From the IMG/VR virus record IMGVR_UViG_3300009068_000052, positions 1 to 53,914 of that record: a stretch of DNA of 53,914 bases. One strand, written 5' to 3'. Source of the DNA: a virus (Duplodnaviria > Caudoviricetes). Under the pieces are notes generated by a model. The model was not told the DNA's origin. It searched no databases and saw nothing but the letters and a program-made list of their open reading frames with translations. Position 1 is the stretch's first letter; each line of letters begins with the position of its first letter. Positions 30,707-47,781 of the stretch are shown here, one piece after another. Both the position numbers and the translations under genes were made by a program.

Positions 30707-33230
30707 AAGGTACTCCTTGGGTTGGTTTAGGTACAGACTTGCTTTGCTCAAAGTTGAGCTTGGCCGCATCCCGTGTTAAGCGGGCTGTTTCGATGCGTTC
30801 TTTGGTCTCTTGGTCGCCCTTGGCGATGGCAAGGCGCAGTTGCAGTTCTTCCATGTCGATTTGCTGCTGCTGCTGTAGTTTGTCCATGTCCATCTTGATG
30901 CGGGCCTGAAGCTCCTGACCCTTGAGGCCCATCTCGGCTTGGTCGCGCTGGGTGCGGCGTTGGGTCTCGGCCATGCTGGTGTCGAGCAGGACTTTGGTCT
31001 CTGCCGACATCTGTGGCTGCGGCTGGAACTGCTGCAACTGCTGCTGCATCTGCTGGATGGCGGGCATGACCTTTTGCAAAGCCTCGTCGCTGTCCATGCG
31101 AACGTGCTGGGACACGGCAGAGAACAGCTTGTCGAGCTTGGCTGGGTTCTTGACCATGTCGTAGTCTTGGGTCTTGTTGTCCATCGACATATCCACATAG
31201 CCGTTCATGCGGTTCAAGTACCACAAGACCAAGTGCTGTTTGATGTGTTCCATCGCACGCGGCAGGTAGGTCTGCGCAATTGCGGGGTTGCCGCCCAGCA
31301 CTGGGTTGTTGGCAAAGTCCAGAATGACTTGAATGTGGGAAAGGTGGTCTTGTTCGATGTAGGCGTAGGCCGCTTGACCCAAAGCCATTGCCACGTTCTC
31401 GTTGGCAGCGTCCAGCTTGGTGGGAGAAGGTACATCGACCATGAGTTCGTTGACACCGGGCACCTTTATCTGCTTCAAAAAGCGCTCCAGCACGACTTTT
31501 TGGTTGAACTGGGCGGGATACTTCTCCATCAGCGACATCACGGCCTGCGTTTGGGCCATGCGCTGAGTTTCAGAGAAGATGTGCGGGTCGGAGACGGGTA
31601 TCACGTCCGTGATGCGGGCAAAATCCTCTTTGGTGATGTCCAAGTCTTCCACAACCTCGCCACGGCGCATGTCATCCAAGTACCAGCGGTTGATTCGACT
31701 TAAAACACGCAGCACACGGCCCTGAGACTCGTGCAAACGGGCGTGGATGGCCGAGAAAACAACTGCGCCCTGCTCAATCAACGCCTGAGTGGTGCCAACA
31801 GGGGTGTTTGAGTTGAGGTCAGCAATTTTTTCCTCTGCCGTAGTCACCACACCCTTGGCGGCGTTGGTCAGAAAGCCCAAAAGCTCAAACAGAACGGGCG
31901 ATGGCGGGTTAAATGGCATGGGCATAGCCAGCTTGCGGACATCGTCCACCCCCGGCGCACCCTCAATCTCCACCACTTGGGTGACTTCGACCTCTTGGGA
32001 CTGCCCAGAAATCTTGCCGCCCTTGAGCTTCAGGAGCGTCGCAGCGTTGTTGATGTGGGCAGAGTCCAGCAAGGCCCGCAAAGCGCCTGTGAGGGCCGCA
32101 GAAAGCCCGCCAATTAGCTGTGGCAGGCCAACAGCGAGTGCGCCACGCCACGGAATGAACTTGAACTCGACAATCCAGTCGAGCTTGGTCATTGTTTCGT
32201 CGCCTTCTTCCCAGTTCCGGTACAGGCCGATGACCTCGCTGGACAGGTCGTCAATCATCAGAATGTACGGAGCGGCCTCACCCTTGGAAATACCGTCCTC
32301 TTCCAGTTCCAACGTGGTGTAGATGTGATAGACGGTGCGCATCCCGTCTTCGTTGTCGTTCTCGGACTTGCCCTCAATCTTGTTGGTGGCCTTTTGCGAG
32401 AGCGAAATCTCCGGGTTCATGGTTGCCCGGATGTAGCTGGTGTCGCGGTACAGGCCAGAAGCCACGCGGCTCTTGTACTTTGCTTCCGAGATGATGTCCA
32501 CCTCGGTCACGCGCTCGGCGTTGTAGAAGTTGCTGGCCGAGTACGGCAGGATGACGTTGTCTACAGGTAGAAATTCAGCACATGGTCGCTTCTTCTTCTC
32601 GTCGTACCAGAGCTTCATGTACTGACTGCCGCCCAGTGGTAGCTGAGTCAGCATCTGCTCCTGCTCGTCGCGGAACTCTTCAATCTGCTCGGTCAATTGC
32701 CAGTTCATAAAGTCGCGCTTGCGCTCGGCAATCTCAACCTTGTCGTCGTCCACATCACCCAAAATCTTGGTGCGGGTTGGGCCGTCAGGCGGGAACATCT
32801 CTTTGATGGCGCGGGATGCGAAGTCGATACAGGCTTCGGCCATGACAGGATGCACCACCTTGCTTGCGCCGTTGAAGTTGGCTCCGCCGGGGGCGTCCTT
32901 GCCCATGCCGGTGCGCTTGATGCCCTCTTCGTACTGCTTGTCGCGCTCCTTGCGGGCTTCCTTGTCCTTCTCGACCAGTTCGATGTATTTCAGCGGGAGC
33001 TTGTCGAGGTCATATGGGTCGAACGAGTCGGCCAAGTTCTGGTAGAAATCCTCGTCCTCCATTGGGCCTTTGTCGCCAGTGTGGACAATGACCGAGCCGT
33101 CTGGCAACTCTTCGATGGTCGAGTCATCCAACTCAGGCATCTCTACCTCTACGCCTTCACTTTCCGCGTCAGGCGGCTCACCGCCGATGAAGCGCTGGAA
33201 CTCTGGGTCAATTGGGAACTGTGTTGCCAT
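30693..33230 (-). CDS. Portal protein
   Basis: 845 aa with 'F.GAS.V.HP..AEA...F..RA..E.FP..GP', 'LPL.GS...K...D' and 'PVGTT.AL.EQG..V.SAIH.RLH', ending in a Gln-rich coiled-coil barrel (P22-like). Confidence 0.88.
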   Translation of the reverse strand: MATQFPIDPEFQRFIGGEPPDAESEGVEVEMPELDDSTIEELPDGSVIVHTGDKGPMEDEDFYQNLADSFDPYDLDKLPLKYIELVEKDKEARKERDKQYEEGIKRTGMGKDAPGGANFNGASKVVHPVMAEACIDFASRAIKEMFPPDGPTRTKILGDVDDDKVEIAERKRDFMNWQLTEQIEEFRDEQEQMLTQLPLGGSQYMKLWYDEKKKRPCAEFLPVDNVILPYSASNFYNAERVTEVDIISEAKYKSRVASGLYRDTSYIRATMNPEISLSQKATNKIEGKSENDNEDGMRTVYHIYTTLELEEDGISKGEAAPYILMIDDLSSEVIGLYRNWEEGDETMTKLDWIVEFKFIPWRGALAVGLPQLIGGLSAALTGALRALLDSAHINNAATLLKLKGGKISGQSQEVEVTQVVEIEGAPGVDDVRKLAMPMPFNPPSPVLFELLGFLTNAAKGVVTTAEEKIADLNSNTPVGTTQALIEQGAVVFSAIHARLHESQGRVLRVLSRINRWYLDDMRRGEVVEDLDITKEDFARITDVIPVSDPHIFSETQRMAQTQAVMSLMEKYPAQFNQKVVLERFLKQIKVPGVNELMVDVPSPTKLDAANENVAMALGQAAYAYIEQDHLSHIQVILDFANNPVLGGNPAIAQTYLPRAMEHIKQHLVLWYLNRMNGYVDMSMDNKTQDYDMVKNPAKLDKLFSAVSQHVRMDSDEALQKVMPAIQQMQQQLQQFQPQPQMSAETKVLLDTSMAETQRRTQRDQAEMGLKGQELQARIKMDMDKLQQQQQIDMEELQLRLAIAKGDQETKERIETARLTRDAAKLNFEQSKSVPKPTQGVPYGYQ

Positions 33231-36200
33231 GTCGTTTTACCTTTTTGGGTTTGCAGTGGGCGAGGCCACCAGCCATTTTTACTTCGCCGCCTTCTTTGCG
33301 CTGGAGGCCCGTCTGTCTGACATCAGGCATTCCTTCTTTGCGGTACCACGGCAATAAATCTCCTTCGCCTGTGCTTATCTGCCGCAGCACTTCAGCGCGG
33401 ACATTTGCAGGGTTGGGCTGAATTCCTTTTTTGTTGAGAGTGTACGCAACCTGCTTCTCCAGCAAATCAAGGGCATCACCCCGTGGTGAACGCAACCCCG
33501 TCAACTCTCCGCCACCAAACCAGCGGCCAGCCTGCGCCATACCGCCGGGGATGCCAAGGTCTTGCGCAATTCCCAGCAAGCCTTGCTCACCTGCGTTGTA
33601 CTCGGTGTTGCCAAAGCCGCCTGCTTCTTTGAAGTAGGGGTGAAACCGACTGCCTTGCGTTTGCCCTGCGGCCTCATGGACATCCAGCACCACGGACTTG
33701 GCAAAGTCACCCGCCTTCTGGGTGCCGTAGGTTGGAATCTTGTAGTTGGTTGGAATGTTGGCCTTGCTCATCTCGCGCAAGTTTTGCCCGCCTTCAAGGA
33801 CGTTTTGCACACCTTGCCGATGAACTGGCATCAACGGCACGCCAATGCCAAACTTCTCCTGAAACTCAACCATCTGCCGCTCAACGTTTTCCTCTGTCAA
33901 CGGGATGCCACGGGCATTCATGTCGCGCATCAACTGTCCCACTGACATTTCGTTCATGATGGAGTTGCGTGCAGATGCCGGGGCAAGCGAGTGAATCCAT
34001 TGCTCAAACTTCTCCGCAGGCATCCCTGCTTCCATCACTGCTTGCTTCACCGGGTAGAGCGAAGCATAGAACGTCTCGCCACCCAACGGCAGGCCACGCT
34101 TGATTTGTCTCTCAATCAAGGAACGGTTTTCTGGGTCGTTGTACAACTCTTCCACATGAGAGATGTTGGCGCGGGGTGGGATGTCTCGTGGGAATGCTGT
34201 TTGTTCAACGCCGGGAAACCCTTCTAATGCGTCCTTGATGGACGAGCGGTCAAATGCCTGCAACTCAGGAGGCGGCGGATTCCACGGCTCGGTGGGGATG
34301 GACAGAAACTCGTTAGCTTTGCGCTTGCGCTCCGCCACCACCTCTGGTGTGTTCTGCAATTTTTTGGGCTTGCTGTCTGCGTAAGACGATTTCACCAATG
34401 CCCCGTACACTTTTTGCAATTCTGGTTTTTGAGTTCGCTCCCAATCCAGCTTACTCTTAGCTTGCTTTGTGGCTTTGCTCATCACCTCTGCATCACTCAG
34501 CTTTGGGTTGGCTGCGGCAATATTGTCGGCAAACTTGGCTGCTGTTGAGTCCAGTATTTTTTGGCTGTATGGAGCAACGTCTTTAGATTTTTTTGCAGCC
34601 TTTGCAGCCTTCTGCGCCTTGAGTGCTGCGCCACCAATGCCCATGTGCGGCTCTTCTGCAATCATGTCCAGCAGGCGTTGCTTGGCATCGGATACCGAGC
34701 CACCTGCGGCCATGCGAATTTCGCCACCTTTTTTGCGGCGCTGCACCGGGGTCTTGTTAAACATGATTGCCATCGGCTTGGACGCCTTGGGGTTTGCCAT
34801 GCCCTCGTAGCCATACTCACGGACGAGGCGCTCAATGTCGTTGGCGTCCTGCGCGGGGTAGGCGATGCCTTGGTTGTACTTGGCGGTGTAGGGCGTGCGG
34901 TTGGACTCGCGGGCCAGCACGTTGAAGTTCAACGGGTCTTGCGTGATGTCGTACAGGTTTGACGACTCACCACGGTAGCGGTTGACGCCAAGCCCCGGCT
35001 CCGGAAGGACTGTTCCGGGTTCGCCCATGTAGAAGTAAGAGCGGTCACGCACCGCGCCGGGGTAGTTTATCAGGCGCTCGGCCTCGGCACCCTTGATGCC
35101 CGTGCCGTACTTCCGGGGGTCAGTAAAAGTCAGACCCGGCTCGTTGCTGAAGTGAGTTAGGGGCGATTGAATAGAAGTTCCCGGCATTGGCTTGTTTGCG
35201 GCAGCAAGGTAGTCAGGAATGCCTCCAGCAAACTGGGGATTCATAAACTCAGGTGGCAGTAGCACGGCTTTGTTGGGAGCAAACTCCAACCCGGAATACG
35301 CTTGGCGCTTTAGCTCCGCAATTTTATTTACAAGGGCTTTATCACCGCGCCTGCTGGCCTCGTTTCCTAAGCGCTCGTACTCCGATATGGTTTGCTTGAG
35401 CTTGGCGTTCAGCGGGCTGTAGTTCACCACCGAATTTTGCCCACGGGTCTCAGCCGTCATAGCCATCCGCGCAAGTGGAGAGTACATCTGCTGGTGAACA
35501 GCCCATGCCATCTCTTCGCCCTTGGGGCCAAACTCGTTGCCGTAAATGGCGTGACCCAAAAGATCATGGACGGCCCGGAACTTTTCGTTCTCATTTAGGC
35601 CGCTTTGCGGATCGACGTTGTGCAAGAAGTCGTGTTTGTCGCCACCTTGATAAACGTACAAGTGCTTGTTTCCATGCACATCAGAGGCCATGTCCTTGGC
35701 CCCGTTGTAGTTGCCCTCACCAGCGCGGTGGTACGAGAAGTTGTACGGCAGTCTCTTGAATTGATCGTCAGTCTCCTTTGCCATCTGACGGTAAGCCTTC
35801 TCCATCAGGTCGTCGTAGTTCTTTGCGCCAATCCTCTCCATCAACTCAGGCATTTCCCGGCCATAAGCCCCAAAGATTGCAGACTTGTATTCGGGCGATC
35901 CTTGGACGGCTAAATCAAAAGTGCGGGCAATGCCCGACTGTTTTGCCAACGAGCTACTGGGAACCTGCGGAACTCCAAAATCTGCCCCTTGAGTGTCTCG
36001 CGTGTACTTCCTTGCAATGTTAAGCGGCTCGTTCGCAACTGGGTCAGCAATTATTCGACCCACCTCTTCTGACGATAGGAATTTCGGAACTTCGCGTCCA
36101 GCTTGTTCTGCTCCTCCTCCGTCAAGGGCGGAGCCTCGTAGCCCATCAGTTTCTTTAATTCCGCGAGTTGTTGCCTTGCTCGTGTCAAGTGCTGTTGGGC

Positions 36201-37632
36201 TGACTCGGAAGAACGGGCCTTCTTGTTTTGTTGCATAAGTAGCTCCTGTTTCTAAGGGTGTAATTTTGCTTGGGGTTAAAGCCTGTGTTGTTTTCTTTGC
36301 AGCACCAGCAGCCGCACTGCCAGCCTTAGCTCCCGCTTTGACTGCGCCATACCCTAGAGCAGCCACGCTTGCGGCGTCTAGCATGTCAAACGCATCAGGC
36401 ATCTGGCCGTAGCCAATGTCCTCGGCCACCTTGCTCAGGCCGGGTGTGCCCACAAGGTCGGACATTTTTATTGCCTCCAGTACGTCCTTGGTTGGCACGG
36501 TGGTCGTGGAGATGCCGGGTTTCTTGTACTGCATCGGCTGGCCGTACTCATAGTCCTCGGCAGGCACGTTCGAGCCAAAAGTGATGTCAGTCGGGATGGA
36601 GATGTTGGACGACTCCATCCGCTTGCGCATATCAGGGCCGACAAAGGGGACTGCACCGACTAGATTACCGACTAGGTTGGACAGCGACGGGCCTTTGTCA
36701 ATCAACTGGGTCGCGTAGTCAGCGCCGCTCTTGATTGCGCCAGCAATGGGGTTGATTTGGCGGGCACGCATCTCCGCTTCTTTCTTGGGCTGCTCGTAGC
36801 GCTCCCACGGGTACTTCGGGGTGCGACCACCACCAGCCATGTGGACAGCGCCACCACTAGCCTTGGTGATGTCAGGGTCGTTTAGGTCGTAGGTGCCACG
36901 GTTGCCGATGGCGGACTTGATTTGCGTAGCGTTGAAGGGCGCGTAAACCTCCGAGCCGTTCTCAATAGCAATTACGCCATCATGACCTAGTCGCTTCATC
37001 GCGTCGGTTGCCACTGTGGACTTTACAAGGTCAAACCCCCTTGGCATATGCTCACGTTCGTAGCCAGAGGCTTTGTATTTGATGGCCTTGGGGATGTCTT
37101 CAAGTAACTCCTCAACACCAACGCCCAAAGCCTTTGCCACAGCCGTGGCCTCATCCATATTCAGTTCGCCAGATAGGTTTTTAATAAGGCCGGTTGCGTA
37201 GAAAGGATTTTCAATTGACAAATGCACGGGCATGATGTTCACGCCTTGTGGAACATTGGGGTCTTCTTCCCAAGGTCTATGCTGGGTTTTCCAATACCTA
37301 AACTTCTGAGACGCAAAGTCGTTTGCAAACTCCGGGTCGTTTGTCATCCACCCGGCAATGTTGGTGCTGTTCTCTGTTTTTGGGTCTTCTTTTGGGTCAA
37401 ACCGTTTGACATTCTGATTTGTTGCGTGATACGCCCTGTTCTTGACCTTGCTGCCTTCCAGCATCTTGGCTAGGTTGGCTTCACGCTCTGCTGCCGGGAG
37501 GATGGCTTTGGCTCCGGTCTCTGCCGCCTTGGCTACCTTCTGAGCTTTGCCGATGGCCTTCAGCAATCCACCCCCGGCCATGTGAGGTTCGTCGGCAATC
37601 ATCTGTAGCAGGCGTGCTTTGGCGTCAGTCAT
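33208..37632 (-). CDS. Large polyvalent (multidomain) protein, putative head cargo
   Basis: 1474 aa. ART-like 'YHAT...F...QIKSAIGNRGTYD..DPDI' domain, 'FRAVHDLLGH...GEE...ETRGQNS' domain, 'THFS...DP..YGTG' domain and a glycosylase-like C-terminal domain. The main modules are separated by xxxGG linkers. Confidence 0.75.
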   Translation of the reverse strand: MTDAKARLLQMIADEPHMAGGGLLKAIGKAQKVAKAAETGAKAILPAAEREANLAKMLEGSKVKNRAYHATNQNVKRFDPKEDPKTENSTNIAGWMTNDPEFANDFASQKFRYWKTQHRPWEEDPNVPQGVNIMPVHLSIENPFYATGLIKNLSGELNMDEATAVAKALGVGVEELLEDIPKAIKYKASGYEREHMPRGFDLVKSTVATDAMKRLGHDGVIAIENGSEVYAPFNATQIKSAIGNRGTYDLNDPDITKASGGAVHMAGGGRTPKYPWERYEQPKKEAEMRARQINPIAGAIKSGADYATQLIDKGPSLSNLVGNLVGAVPFVGPDMRKRMESSNISIPTDITFGSNVPAEDYEYGQPMQYKKPGISTTTVPTKDVLEAIKMSDLVGTPGLSKVAEDIGYGQMPDAFDMLDAASVAALGYGAVKAGAKAGSAAAGAAKKTTQALTPSKITPLETGATYATKQEGPFFRVSPTALDTSKATTRGIKETDGLRGSALDGGGAEQAGREVPKFLSSEEVGRIIADPVANEPLNIARKYTRDTQGADFGVPQVPSSSLAKQSGIARTFDLAVQGSPEYKSAIFGAYGREMPELMERIGAKNYDDLMEKAYRQMAKETDDQFKRLPYNFSYHRAGEGNYNGAKDMASDVHGNKHLYVYQGGDKHDFLHNVDPQSGLNENEKFRAVHDLLGHAIYGNEFGPKGEEMAWAVHQQMYSPLARMAMTAETRGQNSVVNYSPLNAKLKQTISEYERLGNEASRRGDKALVNKIAELKRQAYSGLEFAPNKAVLLPPEFMNPQFAGGIPDYLAAANKPMPGTSIQSPLTHFSNEPGLTFTDPRKYGTGIKGAEAERLINYPGAVRDRSYFYMGEPGTVLPEPGLGVNRYRGESSNLYDITQDPLNFNVLARESNRTPYTAKYNQGIAYPAQDANDIERLVREYGYEGMANPKASKPMAIMFNKTPVQRRKKGGEIRMAAGGSVSDAKQRLLDMIAEEPHMGIGGAALKAQKAAKAAKKSKDVAPYSQKILDSTAAKFADNIAAANPKLSDAEVMSKATKQAKSKLDWERTQKPELQKVYGALVKSSYADSKPKKLQNTPEVVAERKRKANEFLSIPTEPWNPPPPELQAFDRSSIKDALEGFPGVEQTAFPRDIPPRANISHVEELYNDPENRSLIERQIKRGLPLGGETFYASLYPVKQAVMEAGMPAEKFEQWIHSLAPASARNSIMNEMSVGQLMRDMNARGIPLTEENVERQMVEFQEKFGIGVPLMPVHRQGVQNVLEGGQNLREMSKANIPTNYKIPTYGTQKAGDFAKSVVLDVHEAAGQTQGSRFHPYFKEAGGFGNTEYNAGEQGLLGIAQDLGIPGGMAQAGRWFGGGELTGLRSPRGDALDLLEKQVAYTLNKKGIQPNPANVRAEVLRQISTGEGDLLPWYRKEGMPDVRQTGLQRKEGGEVKMAGGLAHCKPKKVKRHGNTVPN

Positions 37633-37795
37633 GTCCAGCCTCTTGTGGGGAGATGCTCGGGATTACACCATAGGTGGGTGGGGTCGTTTTTTCCCCAGTA
37701 GTCTCCACCCTCTTGCAACTCCTGCACACCCACCTAACCCTACCCCCGATTAGGTCATATGACTCTACTATCCCTCCACACTTGCATATCTTCAT
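37625..37795 (-). CDS. Small zinc-ribbon protein (not in ORF track)
   Basis: Translated by hand as MKICKCGGIVESYDLIGGRVRWVCRSCKRVETTGEK...(56 aa), with CxC and CxxC. Its end overlaps the start of the 1474-aa gene. Confidence 0.6.
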   Translation of the reverse strand: MKICKCGGIVESYDLIGGRVRWVCRSCKRVETTGEKTTPPTYGVIPSISPQEAGHD

Positions 37796-37799
37796 TTAA

Positions 37800-38196
37800 T
37801 GCTCTTTGGTGAATGTTGGAGCAAAGCGCAGCCTTTACCGTGACTCATCACAGTTCCGCTACGCTTTGACGGGATGCTCTTCGGAGCCATGCCATCGCTT
37901 ACGCTGGACAGACTTGCAGACCTTTCGGCCCTACCACCGCGCTCTATCCTTAGCCCACGCTCCCTGCCTTGGCTTGCTCGTGCAGCAGGGTATCCCAAAC
38001 GCAACCACCGACGTACCGCATTGCGTCGGCCAAAAGCAAAAACCCCGCAAGATGCTCTGTGGTCTTGGCTCTTGGCGAGAGCAACAGCAAGACGATTGAA
38101 CAGATGGTCAAAAGACTCGCTTGCCGTACGACAAGACCACACAGTACCCTGCGGGGTTATTTTCATCTGTTCATCGTCTAGTTGCCACACCAGACG
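37800..38196 (-). ncRNA. Large structured RNA (C4-like multibranch domain plus further helices)
   Basis: At least eight helices, including a 27-bp stem (38041-38067/38132-38158). Non-Watson-Crick positions mostly read as G-U on the minus strand. GAAA- and CGAA-capped hairpins; promoter directly upstream. Confidence 0.6.
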
Positions 38197-38202
38197 GGCG
38201 GG

Positions 38203-38232
38203 AGTATAGCACAGGTTCGGAAGTGTTGGCAA
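38203..38232 (-). promoter_or_regulatory. Sigma70-type promoter
   Basis: TTGCCA-N18-TATACT with extended -10 TG, just downstream of the terL stop and pointing into the structured region. Confidence 0.7.
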
Positions 38233-38245
38233 GCGTTGAGTCTCC

Positions 38246-39667
38246 TTAGATTGCATATGGGTTCACACGGCGGCTCTTCTTGCCTGAGTCCTCGTAGTCG
38301 TCCTCGTCGTAGTCTTCCCGTGGCGGTGGGTCAACGTCGAGCCAGCCGCCGTCTCGTAGGTAGCGCAGGGCTTGGGTACACATATCCACGAAGTCGTCGT
38401 GGGTGGTCTCGGGGAAGCTGCATATCTGGGACACAAACGGTTCGGCCCAGTCCTTGACGTAGCCCTTGCGGGCGTCGGACTCAGGTATCCACACCCTCCC
38501 ACGGGAGATGATGTTGGACACGATGTTTAGGCGCTGCACCTTGTCGGCCTTGCCGGGGTTGTAGCCCATGACGGGCAGGTGGCCGCGCTGTAGGTCTTGA
38601 ATCAGGCTGATGCCTGCGCTCTTGTCCTCGACCAGCACGAGGTCAACACGCTTCTTGTTCTTGCCCTCGCCGTAGATTACCTCGTACTCCTCCATGACCT
38701 TGGGGCGCAGGTCGGGGTACTGGAGCCTGTCCTGCCAGCAGTCGATGAGCATGACCGACATCGGGCCGTCCAGTGGCTTGAAGATTCCCCACGTTCCAGC
38801 AGCCGTCGGGTCGTTCTGGGTCTTCTCGCTGGTAGCGCAGTCGTAGCTTTGCAGGATGTACTCGAACTTGGGGAACTCCTTGCCAGCAGGCCAGAGTTTG
38901 AACATATTGCGCTTGACGATGCCGCCTTCCTCGGGGTCGATGATTTCGGCGTGAATCTCTTGCCGCCCTAGCTTGGTGCCCTCGAATTGCAAGATTTGTT
39001 TCTGGAAGTTCTTGGACAGGTTGGCGAGGTTGGTGTAGGTGGAGGCCGTGGTCAGCACGACATCGTCTCCATCCCGCCCCACTAAGTCCACGATGAGGTC
39101 TTTTGGTCGCGGGGTCGTAGTGCAGATGATGCGCGTCCTGTCGCCCAGACGGACGGAGAACATGATTTGGTTCCACGCTTCGTCGAGGTAGTCCCAAGCG
39201 GCAAGCTCATCGCACCAAGCCCCGTGGAACTGCGGGCCACGGAAGCGCTCAGGCTCGGAGGCTGGGATGCCCTTGATGAGCGACCCGTTGGTCAATCTCA
39301 ACTCGTGCGCGGTCTTGTTGTAGTCGGCCTGTAACGCCTTGGGTATGACGGCCAGCAGCCCGGAGTCGCCCTCGAAGGCCACCGCCCGGACATCTGCCGA
39401 GGTGGGAGCGGCCACCAGCCATCGGGTGTTTGGCTCGGTGAATGCCCACCACCCTACCTGTTCGGCGGCGGTACGGGTCTTCCCGGCACCACGCCCTGCC
39501 AGAAGGAGCCAGATGCTCCACCAGTCGCCGTGGGGCAGTATTTGGTGGTCATGGGCCTGCGTGAGCCACTTCATGCGCCACGCCCATGCTATGACGTACT
39601 GAGGGCTGGCGTTGGCTAGGTCTTTCTTGACCGCCGGGTCTGCCAACAATTCAACAAGGTCATTCAT
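38246..39667 (-). CDS. terL: Terminase large subunit
   Basis: Walker A AGRGAGKT, 'RFRGPQ...AWCDE' Walker B, TTTP coupling motif, and nuclease 'QSYD.A', 'EDKSAG' and 'FP...HDD.VD'. Confidence 0.96.
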   Translation of the reverse strand: MNDLVELLADPAVKKDLANASPQYVIAWAWRMKWLTQAHDHQILPHGDWWSIWLLLAGRGAGKTRTAAEQVGWWAFTEPNTRWLVAAPTSADVRAVAFEGDSGLLAVIPKALQADYNKTAHELRLTNGSLIKGIPASEPERFRGPQFHGAWCDELAAWDYLDEAWNQIMFSVRLGDRTRIICTTTPRPKDLIVDLVGRDGDDVVLTTASTYTNLANLSKNFQKQILQFEGTKLGRQEIHAEIIDPEEGGIVKRNMFKLWPAGKEFPKFEYILQSYDCATSEKTQNDPTAAGTWGIFKPLDGPMSVMLIDCWQDRLQYPDLRPKVMEEYEVIYGEGKNKKRVDLVLVEDKSAGISLIQDLQRGHLPVMGYNPGKADKVQRLNIVSNIISRGRVWIPESDARKGYVKDWAEPFVSQICSFPETTHDDFVDMCTQALRYLRDGGWLDVDPPPREDYDEDDYEDSGKKSRRVNPYAI

Positions 39668-40268: not shown

Positions 40269-40307
40269 GGTGAATCCTTATTCCTATGCGGGCCAGTGTA
40301 ACAAGTT

Positions 40308-40376
40308 GTTGGCACAGGGAGCTTCAGTAAGGTGTCTCGTGACAGAAAGCAGCCCGTCCGATTACTTTGCGCCAAC
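40308..40376 (-). ncRNA. Putative ~70-nt structured RNA upstream of terS
   Basis: Closing stem GUUGGCGCA/UGUGCCAAC (G-U on minus strand) with inner UGUC-ACGA-GACA hairpin. TGtTAGAAT extended -10 lies just upstream (40383-40391). Confidence 0.4.
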
Positions 40377-40398
40377 GAATGTATTCTAACACAAAGTT

Positions 40399-40413
40399 GC
40401 CCCTTACGGGGGC
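40399..40413 (-). terminator. GC hairpin, possible terminator ending the early arm
   Basis: GCCCC-CGTAA-GGGGC followed by AACTTTGTG (weak U-tract). Confidence 0.4.
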
Positions 40414-40509
40414 GAGTCGGTCAAATAACAGAGGGTAAGGTGCCCACTGCTTTGACTGACGCGGTTAAGAGGGGAGATTCAAAAAAAACCCTCGGTGCCC
40501 ACTCACGCC

Positions 40510-40638: not shown

Positions 40639-40880
40639 CTAGTGCCCCTTGCTCTGATTGCATCAACAATCCTTTGTTTAACGTACTCAACGCCTTGGTG
40701 TTCTGTGCCAAACCCCTCATATTGCTGTAAGACGTTTTGTACGCACTCTTCACGCTCATGTGCGGCTACCAACTCGGCAAAGCGTGTAAGTTCTTCAACC
40801 CAATATCCAGTCTCAATCCGAATGCCGTCATTGTTTGATTCTGTTAGCCGAGCTTGTTTTGCAAGTTCTTTGATGTTCAT
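40635..40880 (-). CDS. Hypothetical protein
   Basis: 81 aa; 'L.RFAELVAAHERE.C...DAIRARG' is a common small phage family. Confidence 0.75.
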   Translation of the reverse strand: MNIKELAKQARLTESNNDGIRIETGYWVEELTRFAELVAAHEREECVQNVLQQYEGFGTEHQGVEYVKQRIVDAIRARGTR

Positions 40881-41368
40881 TTCGCCTCCCTCGCTTTCAG
40901 CATTGCGTCTGCATCCATGTACGCTTGCTCAGTTAATTCGTTGAGTTTCCAATCGGTAGATTGGGCAAGGTTTATTCCGAAGGAAAGACCAGCAAAGTGG
41001 TCACGCAGAGTCATGTCTCGGGCATAGCCGCCTGTCCTTGCCATCCATGTTGACTGCTCTTCTGTCTCGCTCTCTCTGTAATTTAATTCTGCCTTCATGT
41101 TTGCCAGTCCTTTTAATTGTCGGTTAACTTGCTTGCCCATTTGCACCCAGCGATAGTGGTCTTCAGGGCCGATGCTTAATGACAGTCCTATCTGCGCCAG
41201 AGCCTCAACAATCTCTTGTACGGATTTTCTGCCAAGGTTTGGCAGCATCAACAAGTCAAACTTTGTCATTTTGGTGAGGTCTGCAAGAGTTTGAATGCCA
41301 TTGCGCTTAAAAATGTTATGGCACCGCTGAGTTACAGGCAATGCCCAAAGCTCAAATTCAATGTTCAT
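40877..41368 (-). CDS. RNA polymerase alpha-CTD-like domain fused to a small phage domain
   Basis: 'LPVTQRCHNIFKRNGIQTLADL......DLL.LPNLGRKSVQEI.EAL...GLSL' aligns by eye with the RpoA CTD. C-terminal 'MTLRDHFAG...AY..ADAMLKARE'. Confidence 0.8.
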   Translation of the reverse strand: MNIEFELWALPVTQRCHNIFKRNGIQTLADLTKMTKFDLLMLPNLGRKSVQEIVEALAQIGLSLSIGPEDHYRWVQMGKQVNRQLKGLANMKAELNYRESETEEQSTWMARTGGYARDMTLRDHFAGLSFGINLAQSTDWKLNELTEQAYMDADAMLKAREAK

Positions 41369-47684: not shown

Positions 47685-47781
47685 TCACCTTACGTTGTTG
47701 GCCGTTACTAGGAGACAAGGCAGGACGGTAACGAAACGTCTTTTCGGGAGCTAACCTAGCCATGTCGCAGTTAGTGTAACA
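47685..47781 (-). promoter_or_regulatory. Promoter plus structured leader of the initiator gene
   Basis: TGTTACACT extended -10 (47773-47781), then GACATGGC...GCCTTGTC enclosing GACG-TTTCGTTAC-CGTC. The loop CGTTAC is complementary to a downstream GTAACG. Confidence 0.55.

Follow-up and report, generated by a model that had tools for sequence, protein, structure and literature searches.

Between terL (38246-39667; Terminase_6N/6C) and the next gene downstream, the genome of a virus of the Caudoviricetes carries about 400 nucleotides (nt) that a first-pass annotation, made from the sequence alone, had read on the minus strand as a large non-coding RNA (ncRNA) with its own promoter. This raises the question of whether such an RNA exists, how it is built, and what it may do for the genes behind it. 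The stretch analysed, hereafter the window, is a complete 53.9-kb virus record (IMG/VR record IMGVR_UViG_3300009068_000052; 53,914 nt) with direct terminal repeats, and at least half of its sampled words occur in three public runs, all labelled freshwater metagenomes, one of which is possibly its source. On comparative sequence evidence, we take the element, which occupies window positions 38197-37807 on the minus strand and starts 6-7 nt past an extended -10 promoter element, to be a real, widespread, and uncatalogued two-domain phage leader RNA with a co-varying repeat at its 3' junction. The RNA recurs in uncultured phages, where it heads gene blocks in well over a hundred contigs.

Promoter, covariation, and fold

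Relatives of the element were collected along two routes. The best 80 loci were kept from 314 terL relatives in IMG/VR, and an exact scan with a 17-mer from an invariant loop of the second domain (d2) gave at least 119 viral stretches, from which 118 loci were fetched; because some contigs came in by both routes, counts of loci are not counts of contigs. There were 123 full-length matches to the type found in the window (d2-A), with 98 distinct sequences being analysed, and the alignment of the corresponding first domain (d1-A) holds 40 distinct sequences. RNAalifold, when run on a MAFFT alignment, returned a structure that was partial and partly implausible, and helices were therefore set by hand and tested by pair counts.

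Three lines of evidence, namely covariation, an asymmetry of G-U pairs, and insertions and deletions (indels) that ignore codons, uphold the reading as a large ncRNA with its own promoter. Over the whole d2 structure, 84.2% of cells are paired compared to 74.4% in shuffled alignments, with 436 as against 140 changes on both sides of a pair and a covariation score of 0.277 as against 0.127 (slid controls, 0.05-0.11), whereas for the first domain (d1) the corresponding values are 94.4% and 89.3%, 124 and 44.6, and 0.211 and 0.124 (slid controls, 0.04-0.11). In neither domain did any of 500 shuffles score as high, and conservation follows base pairs rather than codons. The claim that the structure exceeds chance also held, as the minus-strand fold has a z of -2.84, with none of 100 shuffles being as good, compared to a z of -1.82 for the plus strand. 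Cells with G-U pairs outnumber those with A-C (566 vs 171 in d2 and 172 vs 24 in d1), and therefore the folded strand is the minus strand, as the original argument from G-U pairs had it.

The same alignments leave a protein-coding explanation with practically no chance of being right. Such an explanation would invoke either a 154-amino-acid (aa) open reading frame (ORF) at 38256-37792, which the first-pass annotation had not listed and which keeps the region open in the window and in one relative (L008), or a mini-ORF starting at the AUG of a conserved AUG-GCU-CC in a loop of d2. The 154-aa frame has no Pfam hit and is not conserved, because relatives differ by indels of 1, 2, 3, and 6 nt, and it is refuted as a gene. 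The frames between the two copies of the junction repeat are split 33/28/34, and ORFs that start at the loop AUG end anywhere, even after three codons; here too, conservation tracks base pairs.

The promoter proposed for the minus strand, TTGCCA-N18-TATACT, is present as a sigma-70 promoter at 38232-38203, with TTGCCA at 38232-38227, an 18-nt spacer, and TG-C-TATACT with the -10 hexamer at 38208-38203. It scores 10/12, has the TG of an extended -10, and is the sole promoter-like site in 37300-38600. In all 40 d1-A rows, a TAnAAT or TAnACT hexamer was seen by eye 5-8 nt upstream of the first hairpin, preceded in most by a TTGACA-like -35 and in 22 of the 40 by a TG before the -10. A promoter directly adjoins the 5' end of other d1 types as well. 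Sequence homology among relatives begins at about 38196-38198, which is therefore taken as the likely transcript start, and the first structure behind it (38197-38176) is the 5' hairpin P1, GUCUGG-UGUGGCAA-CUAGAC (38195-38176), which was foreseen in the original reading and is paired in 100% of cells in the d1-A alignment. Contigs from RNA libraries (four runs, three studies) cover 38028-38198 at a depth of 9-24 and 37933-38076 at a depth of 28-29, compared to only 2-8 for pieces of terL in the same data, with uncovered parts and the ends of contigs being left out of the evidence; as these are assembled contigs that have neither ends nor strand, in which DNA may be present and a conserved RNA gathers its relatives, the support that they give to expression is weak.

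Domain 1, which comprises about 165 nt (38197-38031), consists of P1, a single strand (S1), a long stem that closes a three-way junction, and a U-tract. The long stem lies where a 27-bp helix had been proposed (38158-38132 with 38067-38041), although it in fact has 25 pairs and two mismatches; 99% of its cells are paired and eight of its pairs are changed on both sides. The junction enclosed within 38158-38041 contains the helix GGCAAGCGA/UCG-CUUGCU, a UUGA/UCAA hairpin with an 8-nt loop (S1', 38106-38099), and the hairpin GCUCU-CGCCA-AGAGC (38082-38068). The earlier GGCAAG/CUUGCU helix is kept in relatives, and GCUCU-CGCCA-AGAGC is invariant in them, whereas the earlier GUC-UUUU-GAC is not kept, the conserved pairing at this place being the UUGA/UCAA that closes the loop of a pseudoknot. 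This pseudoknot forms between S1' and S1 (AACAGAUG, 38171-38164), with 8 bp in the window and 7-10 bp in 37 of 39 extracted elements, through 21 distinct sequence pairs, compared to a median of 4 bp in mismatched controls. The G+C-rich foot of the long stem is followed by the U-tract that links the two domains (UUUUUGCUUUUG, 38042-38031), and this arrangement, CCCC...GGGG and then UUUUUGCUUUU, is conserved in 40 of 40 d1-A rows, with the stem enclosing about 65 nt. A U-tract behind a G+C-rich long stem makes d1 look like an intrinsic terminator, and other d1 types likewise end in a stem and a U-run.

Domain 2 comprises about 230 nt (38026-37807), holding seven covarying helices, two of which cross, together with a long-range pseudoknot and an invariant 16-nt loop. 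That loop, UGCGGUACGUCGGUGG (38020-38005), is closed by the first helix, H1 (ACGCAA/UUGCGU, 38026-37999), which shows up to four pair types per position, and reads UGCGGYACGUCGGUGG across the 98 sequences, invariant except for the one Y; relatives do not support the GCCGACG/CGUCGGU pairing that had been placed here. H2 (37990-37962) is the CCCUGC/GCAGGG helix of the original reading, paired in 100% of cells and with five pairs changed on both sides, and its conserved loop, CACGAGCAAGCC, holds GAGCAA (37979-37974), the 5' strand of the long-range pseudoknot. H3 (37960-37957 with 37942-37939) and H4 (37949-37943 with 37912-37906) cross to form a pseudoknot over 37960-37906; H3 is paired in 100% of sequences, as CG in 59, GC in 21, AU in 12, and UA in 6. 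The GGAUAGA/UCUGUCC pairing is also supported by relatives, and the hairpin inside it, GGCC-GAAA-GGUC (37931-37918), varies in size from absent to about 45 nt across d2-A sequences. H6 (GAUGG/CCGUC, 37896-37868), another helix that relatives bear out, carries a 19-nt loop, CAU-GGCUCC-G-AAGAGCAU, which is the first copy of the junction repeat and ranges from 17 to 22 nt across d2-A sequences; the GCUC-CGAA-GAGC hairpin proposed within it is specific to the window, the same stretch being a conserved loop in relatives. The last part of the fold (37864-37819) consists of H7 (GCGUAGC/GCUGCGC) around H8 (ACUGUGA-UGAG-UCACGGU), both of which had been predicted and are supported by relatives, and of UUGCUC (37824-37819) behind them, which supplies the 3' strand of the long-range pseudoknot. 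This GAGCAA/UUGCUC pairing is present in 96% of cells, its sole changes being from A-U to G-U (29 of 98), and it brings the pseudoknots, all of which were absent from the first reading, to three: one in d1 and two in d2. The 3' end of d2 is UCACCA, just ahead of the next gene; no U-tract or terminator stands behind it, and therefore the transcript runs into the gene.

Relatives, exchangeable types, and the genes behind the RNA

A whole-element profile found the RNA at full length in 3 of the 80 terL loci (L008, L061, and L032) and the 3' domain alone in 16 more, so that d2 is present in 19 of 80 loci near terL, as well as in 117 of the 118 viral loci fetched by the 17-mer. The part of the element that had been left unexplained in the original reading, some 240 nt, is thus d2, the more widespread of the two domains. 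Among 185,579 prokaryote genomes the 17-mer occurs in 120 stretches, only one of which (L233, a 2-kb contig of a metagenome-assembled genome) has d2, the rest being chance matches, and blastn with the elements of the window, L082, and L078 against 50,697 GenBank phage records gave no match and no cultured phage or host. The suggested search of Rfam has been carried out: Rfam 15 (4227 covariance models) has no match to the RNA, either in the window at gathering score or in 37400-38600 at E<=10, whether to RNase P, 6S, group I or II introns, self-cleaving ribozymes, GOLLD, ROOL, HEARO, OLE, raiA, or riboswitches, and nothing relevant was found at E<=10 over a type-B cassette (L003, 2050-2800). 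The only hit in the window at gathering score, int-alpA RNA at 47702-47766 on the minus strand (36 bits as against 35.8), is unrelated to the element. ARAGORN found no tRNA or tmRNA genes in the window and six loci, and inspection by eye found no acceptor-type pairing for the UCACCA end. Among the papers that a literature search listed, none describes a phage RNA of this kind, which is not proof that it is unpublished. A survey of IMG/VR 3.0 reports 8495 unnamed RNA candidates of 29-151 nt (PMC10690425), and fragments of the present RNA may be among them.

The two domains occur in different combinations, d1-A with d2-A 45 times, d1-B with d2-A 53 times, and d1-B with d2-B 33 times, and one RNA-library contig carries d1-A with d2-B. 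No d1 was found that lacks a d2 behind it, as the two sense hits with no known d2 carry a third d2 type, which in L060 (2160-2440) follows d1-B, contains GGCUCC-UGAGCA, and ends in GUCACCC-GGAGCAGCU-AUG. In d1-B, which follows the same logic as d1-A, a long stem ends in a U-run and has in its 3' half a bulge that covaries with the loop of the 5' hairpin (GUGGAAA, GUAGGAA, GUAGUGGU, GUCGAAA, or GUCGUGU), and d2-B (19 distinct sequences) has UCACCC at its 3' end, adjoining the start codon. In the closest relatives, whose terL is 92-98% identical, the promoter and both flanks are common and the cassette between them differs (d1-B with d2-B), the types being exchanged at one same site under the shared promoter. 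The element belongs to a large, uncatalogued superfamily with at least two d1 types and three d2 types that are swapped like cassettes.

Further variation was seen around this core. In L168 (1056-1237), L091 (2678-2854), and L099 (1777-1958), a d2-A variant that lacks the GGCUCC loop has a repeat of its own (UUGCCUAAG or UUGCCAGAG, present twice), followed by a purine-rich GAUA/AAGA tract and a terminator rather than a gene start. Four loci (L167, L139, L130, and L198) carry an extra structured domain of about 100 nt between d1 and d2-A (GGAACUAGGUCGG...GGGUUAGCGCC...CCGACCUAGUUCC). Relatives also differ by a small gene of about 205 nt, which L003, L002, and L004 have and L007, L006, and L010 lack (L003 2520-2740 compared to L007 2560-2600); the gene is flanked by the direct repeat AACCTATGG, and the same ACCTATGGTGTAATCCC junction closes the window cassette at about 37680.

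The RNA and the genes behind it share a strand in every case, and in 110 of 125 rows the start of an ORF of 30 aa or more lies no further than 80 nt from the element, these ORFs falling into 31 unrelated clusters. The commonest family, as in the window, is a CxC...CxxC mini-protein (Zn-ribbon; 28 of 125 rows), followed by a homologue of the C-terminal part of replication-initiator or primosomal proteins (19 rows; PHROGs 9474, 270, and 9327) and a 67-aa family (12 rows), with PAPS reductase-like, HNH-like, and other families among the rest. The window's representative, a 56-aa protein (37795-37625, minus strand) that the first-pass annotation had missed, has its AUG 11 nt past UCACCA, belongs to the swappable cassette while lying outside the RNA, and has no Pfam or PHROG hit; behind it comes a 1474-aa polyvalent protein (33208-37632, ART-PolyVal domain). 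Depending on the locus, the element follows terL immediately or at a distance of about 1.6 kb, precedes terS by 110-940 nt, or heads a gene block at a divergent junction. Its downstream families, 31 in number and unrelated, fit a generic expression device better than a metabolite sensor, and a riboswitch was rejected on the same functional incoherence.

Whether the RNA might instead act in trans can be weighed on these data. One or two stable RNAs, d1 ending at its terminator and d2 being cut at ...CCA, would act on targets in the host or the phage, the genes nearby being mere bystanders. A strong promoter followed by a structured RNA and then a terminator-like end would suit this idea, as would the invariant loops CGCCA and UGCGGUACGUCGGUGG, the exchange of the cassette as a unit, and, weakly, the greater depth of RNA-library contigs over the RNA than over terL. 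It sits poorly with the constant company of d1 and d2, with a d2 that has no terminator and abuts an ORF in the great majority of rows, and with a repeat that ties the RNA to its own 3' flank, and we regard it as quite unlikely.

The repeat at the 3' junction and its possible purpose

In the window, the second copy of the repeat forms the 3' edge of the conserved RNA (37816-37799), reading ACAU-UCACC-A up to 37807 and then AAGAGCAU (X2, 37806-37799), the same string that ends the H6 loop as X1 (37881-37874). The general layout is N4-GGCUCC-R-X1 in the H6 loop and N4-UCACC-A-X2 at the 3' end of d2, with a left flank in the window that is CAU in both copies; across elements, this short flank (ACAU, ACGU, ACCU, AGAU, or GGAU) agrees less strictly between copies. 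Of 95 elements in which both cores are present, 92 have the same X1 and X2 over 6 nt or more, with a median of 8 and up to 11 nt, compared to a median of 2 when copy 1 is set against copy 2 of another element, and X takes 46 different forms, most of them purine-rich. X1 follows the junction no matter how the latter reads, and X2, which is outside the conserved fold, often coincides with the Shine-Dalgarno region of the next gene. We know of no counterpart for an RNA loop that copies the sequence at the RNA's own 3' end.

The promoter fused to the 5' end, a d1 that resembles a terminator, a d2 that lacks one and abuts a gene, the constant tandem of the two, the unrelated genes behind them, and the position at block heads all point to a generic cis-acting leader. 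The reading that we prefer, to which we give roughly even chances on the strength of these sequence features, is that of a leader at the head of an operon which would control read-through and start-site use through two separable domains. Domain 1 would set how many polymerases proceed, whether through attenuation that some factor relieves or through self-antitermination, and the transcripts that read through would carry d2 as their 5' untranslated region. Domain 2, as a rigid fold, might then hold or present the start region at its edge, with the loop copy X1 competing with the true junction for its recogniser and so setting translation or processing of the first gene. The first-pass annotation had entertained regulatory, replication-primer, and packaging-associated roles; the context found here speaks for generic regulation in cis, a part in priming or R-loop formation is possible, and no finding bears on packaging.

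Several observations weigh against this leader. In a minority of the elements, the Shine-Dalgarno sequence comes 2-4 nt after X2 rather than coinciding with it, and 15 of 125 rows have no nearby ORF start. The RNA is single-copy in the window, although the late operon has a separate promoter before terS, and a simple terminator scan does not call the long stem of d1, because its loop exceeds the 3-8 nt that the scan allows. The competitor model further requires the repeated sequence to have a partner, and the failure to find a complementary one counts against it: a search in cis from -200 to +100 nt gave no consistent match to the complement of X, and over whole loci same-strand complements occur in 26 of 63 cases, a marginal excess over a control of 14.4 +/- 3.3 with a maximum of 23. 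About six of these 26 are a U-tract, UUGCUUUU, facing X = AAAAGCAA, one X type to which the excess is largely due, and whole-locus complements were not counted as partners; nor is there a conserved promoter for an antisense transcript that might pair with X2.

The loop thus co-varies with the RNA's own end by identity and not by complementarity. Neither ordinary alternative pairing nor ordinary RNA switches account for identity over 46 sequences that lack a complement in cis. Identity with no complementary partner points to a decoy logic or to pairing with template DNA. In the latter case X1 would pair with the template strand at X2, some 75 nt later, forming an R-loop that primes replication or blocks the start region, and since only the template strand is by necessity complementary to every version of X2, we keep this as the boldest rival. 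The mostly purine-rich X and the initiator-like next gene in 19 of 125 rows agree with it. The hybrid would, however, be short (about 4 + 8 bp) and interrupted, and the element also occurs in late regions and ahead of 30 other gene families, so that we hold an R-loop former or primer to be decidedly unlikely. A wider form of the idea, which is still unlikely though somewhat less so, is that of a self-addressed RNA, whose displayed loop copy would let the nascent RNA either pair with template DNA at its own 3' junction or stand in for that junction. If true, this would be a protein-independent, sequence-programmable mark for the start of any gene placed behind it, and with it a new regulatory principle, possibly a natural RNA-guided R-loop device in a modular family of operon-head RNAs.

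The repeat also invites comparison to the guide or recombination RNA of a mobile cassette, with the loop specifying the junction at which the cassette sits, as RNA-guided recombination does. Related phages carry the same RNA in different parts of the genome, cassettes are exchanged at one fixed site, and a layout of flanks and a fixed core resembles that of guide loops. No recombinase or transposase is consistently nearby, however, both flanks are direct rather than split between strands, and the left edge is the shared promoter, where there is no repeat, all of which makes such a role very improbable.

Other accounts of the repeat were tried and set aside. Acceptor-stem or T-box-type pairing of UCACCA, a likeness to boxA, a CsrA site, and a Shine-Dalgarno sequence were rejected by eye as explanations of X, the CsrA and Shine-Dalgarno types because X is often neither GGA-containing nor a Shine-Dalgarno sequence. 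The octamer AAGAGCAT occurs seven times in the window (4162, 25528, 37799, 37874, 40562, 51137, and 52606) compared to 1.64 expected, a number that none of 100 shuffles reaches, and the five copies outside the RNA were dismissed as related sites, as they lie in coding sequence and have no extended likeness. Apparent deleted forms that lack the segment between the repeats are short hits merely cut by the ends of loci.

Comparison to known phage RNAs and neighbouring observations

RNA-level control in phages has classic but rare examples in put, the c4/CI RNAs, and the lambda late leader. The c4 RNAs of P1 and P7 and the CI RNA of P4 are made from the leader of the operon that they control; their specificity sequences are short and vary between phages, and they have direct repeats (a1b1/a2b2) and a CCA near the 3' end. 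The first domain had been likened to the C4/CI family (P1 c4, P4 CI, and IsrK in Rfam), but membership fails, as no Rfam C4 hit appears even at E<=10 and no loop is complementary to repeated target-like sequences; with regard to processing by RNase P, the sequence shows only the ...ACCA motif at the 3' end. The present element does share with these RNAs the character of a phage leader, one copy of a variable short sequence that overlaps the ribosome-binding site, direct repeats upstream and downstream, and an ...ACCA near the 3' end, but it is four to five times larger and has two domains and three pseudoknots.

In the lambda late region, PR' gives rise to a 194-nt 6S transcript that ends at the terminator tR'. 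The element resembles this arrangement in having a promoter, a transcript of about 165-190 nt, and an end like an intrinsic terminator, lambda's leader fronting late genes, and differs from it in a strongly covarying fold and a second structured domain, no need for a conserved fold being known in the lambda leader. ColE1 RNA II has a G-run at the plasmid origin and is anchored to DNA; in both systems an upstream RNA segment is the same as one transcribed later and so could pair with the template strand, whereas the sequence is arbitrary here and an origin function is seen only in the ColE1 case. With GOLLD, ROOL, HEARO, OLE, and raiA the element shares large size, multiple pseudoknots, discovery by comparative analysis, and frequent carriage by phages, and it differs from them in being smaller, tied to a promoter, and adjacent to a gene start, with no Rfam hit.

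The last comparison is also a rival explanation, namely processive antitermination like that of HK022 put, in which the nascent RNA would bind the polymerase transcribing it and enable this enzyme to pass both the U-tract of the RNA and the terminators along a long operon. In one report, putL is located immediately behind PL, its action extends over 10 kb or more, and sigma-70 retention aids its folding; put is a cis-acting nascent RNA that needs no dedicated protein (PMC9378689). The likeness to putL and putR lies in a structured RNA that begins directly at a sigma-70 promoter, stands at the heads of operons, here of both early-type and late-type gene blocks, and is generic toward the genes downstream. 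By contrast, put measures about 70 nt and has two stem-loops and a triplex, with no terminator-like end and no junction repeat, compared to 165 + 230 nt here, and there is no likeness in sequence or fold. Its mechanism leaves the junction repeat unexplained, and the element is present in a single copy in the window genome. We therefore rate a put-like mechanism as possible but on the unlikely side.

The RNA offers a concrete system in which to study the control of expression where long phage operons begin, and, since it is generic toward the gene behind it, might serve as a portable expression part if its function were worked out. Its covariation is unusually rich, with one of its three pseudoknots existing in 21 sequence versions.

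Some features of the surrounding genome stand apart from the RNA itself. The 1474-aa ART-PolyVal protein (33208-37632, minus strand) lies directly behind the cassette in the window, and its distance to the RNA varies among relatives. Just upstream of the terS region, a 163-aa protein (40877-41368, minus strand) has an RNA polymerase alpha C-terminal domain (Pfam E = 2.5e-13) and, judging from that domain, may serve the late genes as a transcription factor or decoy. Within 40269-40420 on the minus strand, another extended -10 promoter, TTGACC...TGTGTTAGAAT, has a leader of about 115 nt ahead of terS, and the 3' end of this leader, GGAUUCACC-AUG, again places a UUCACC motif next to a start codon.

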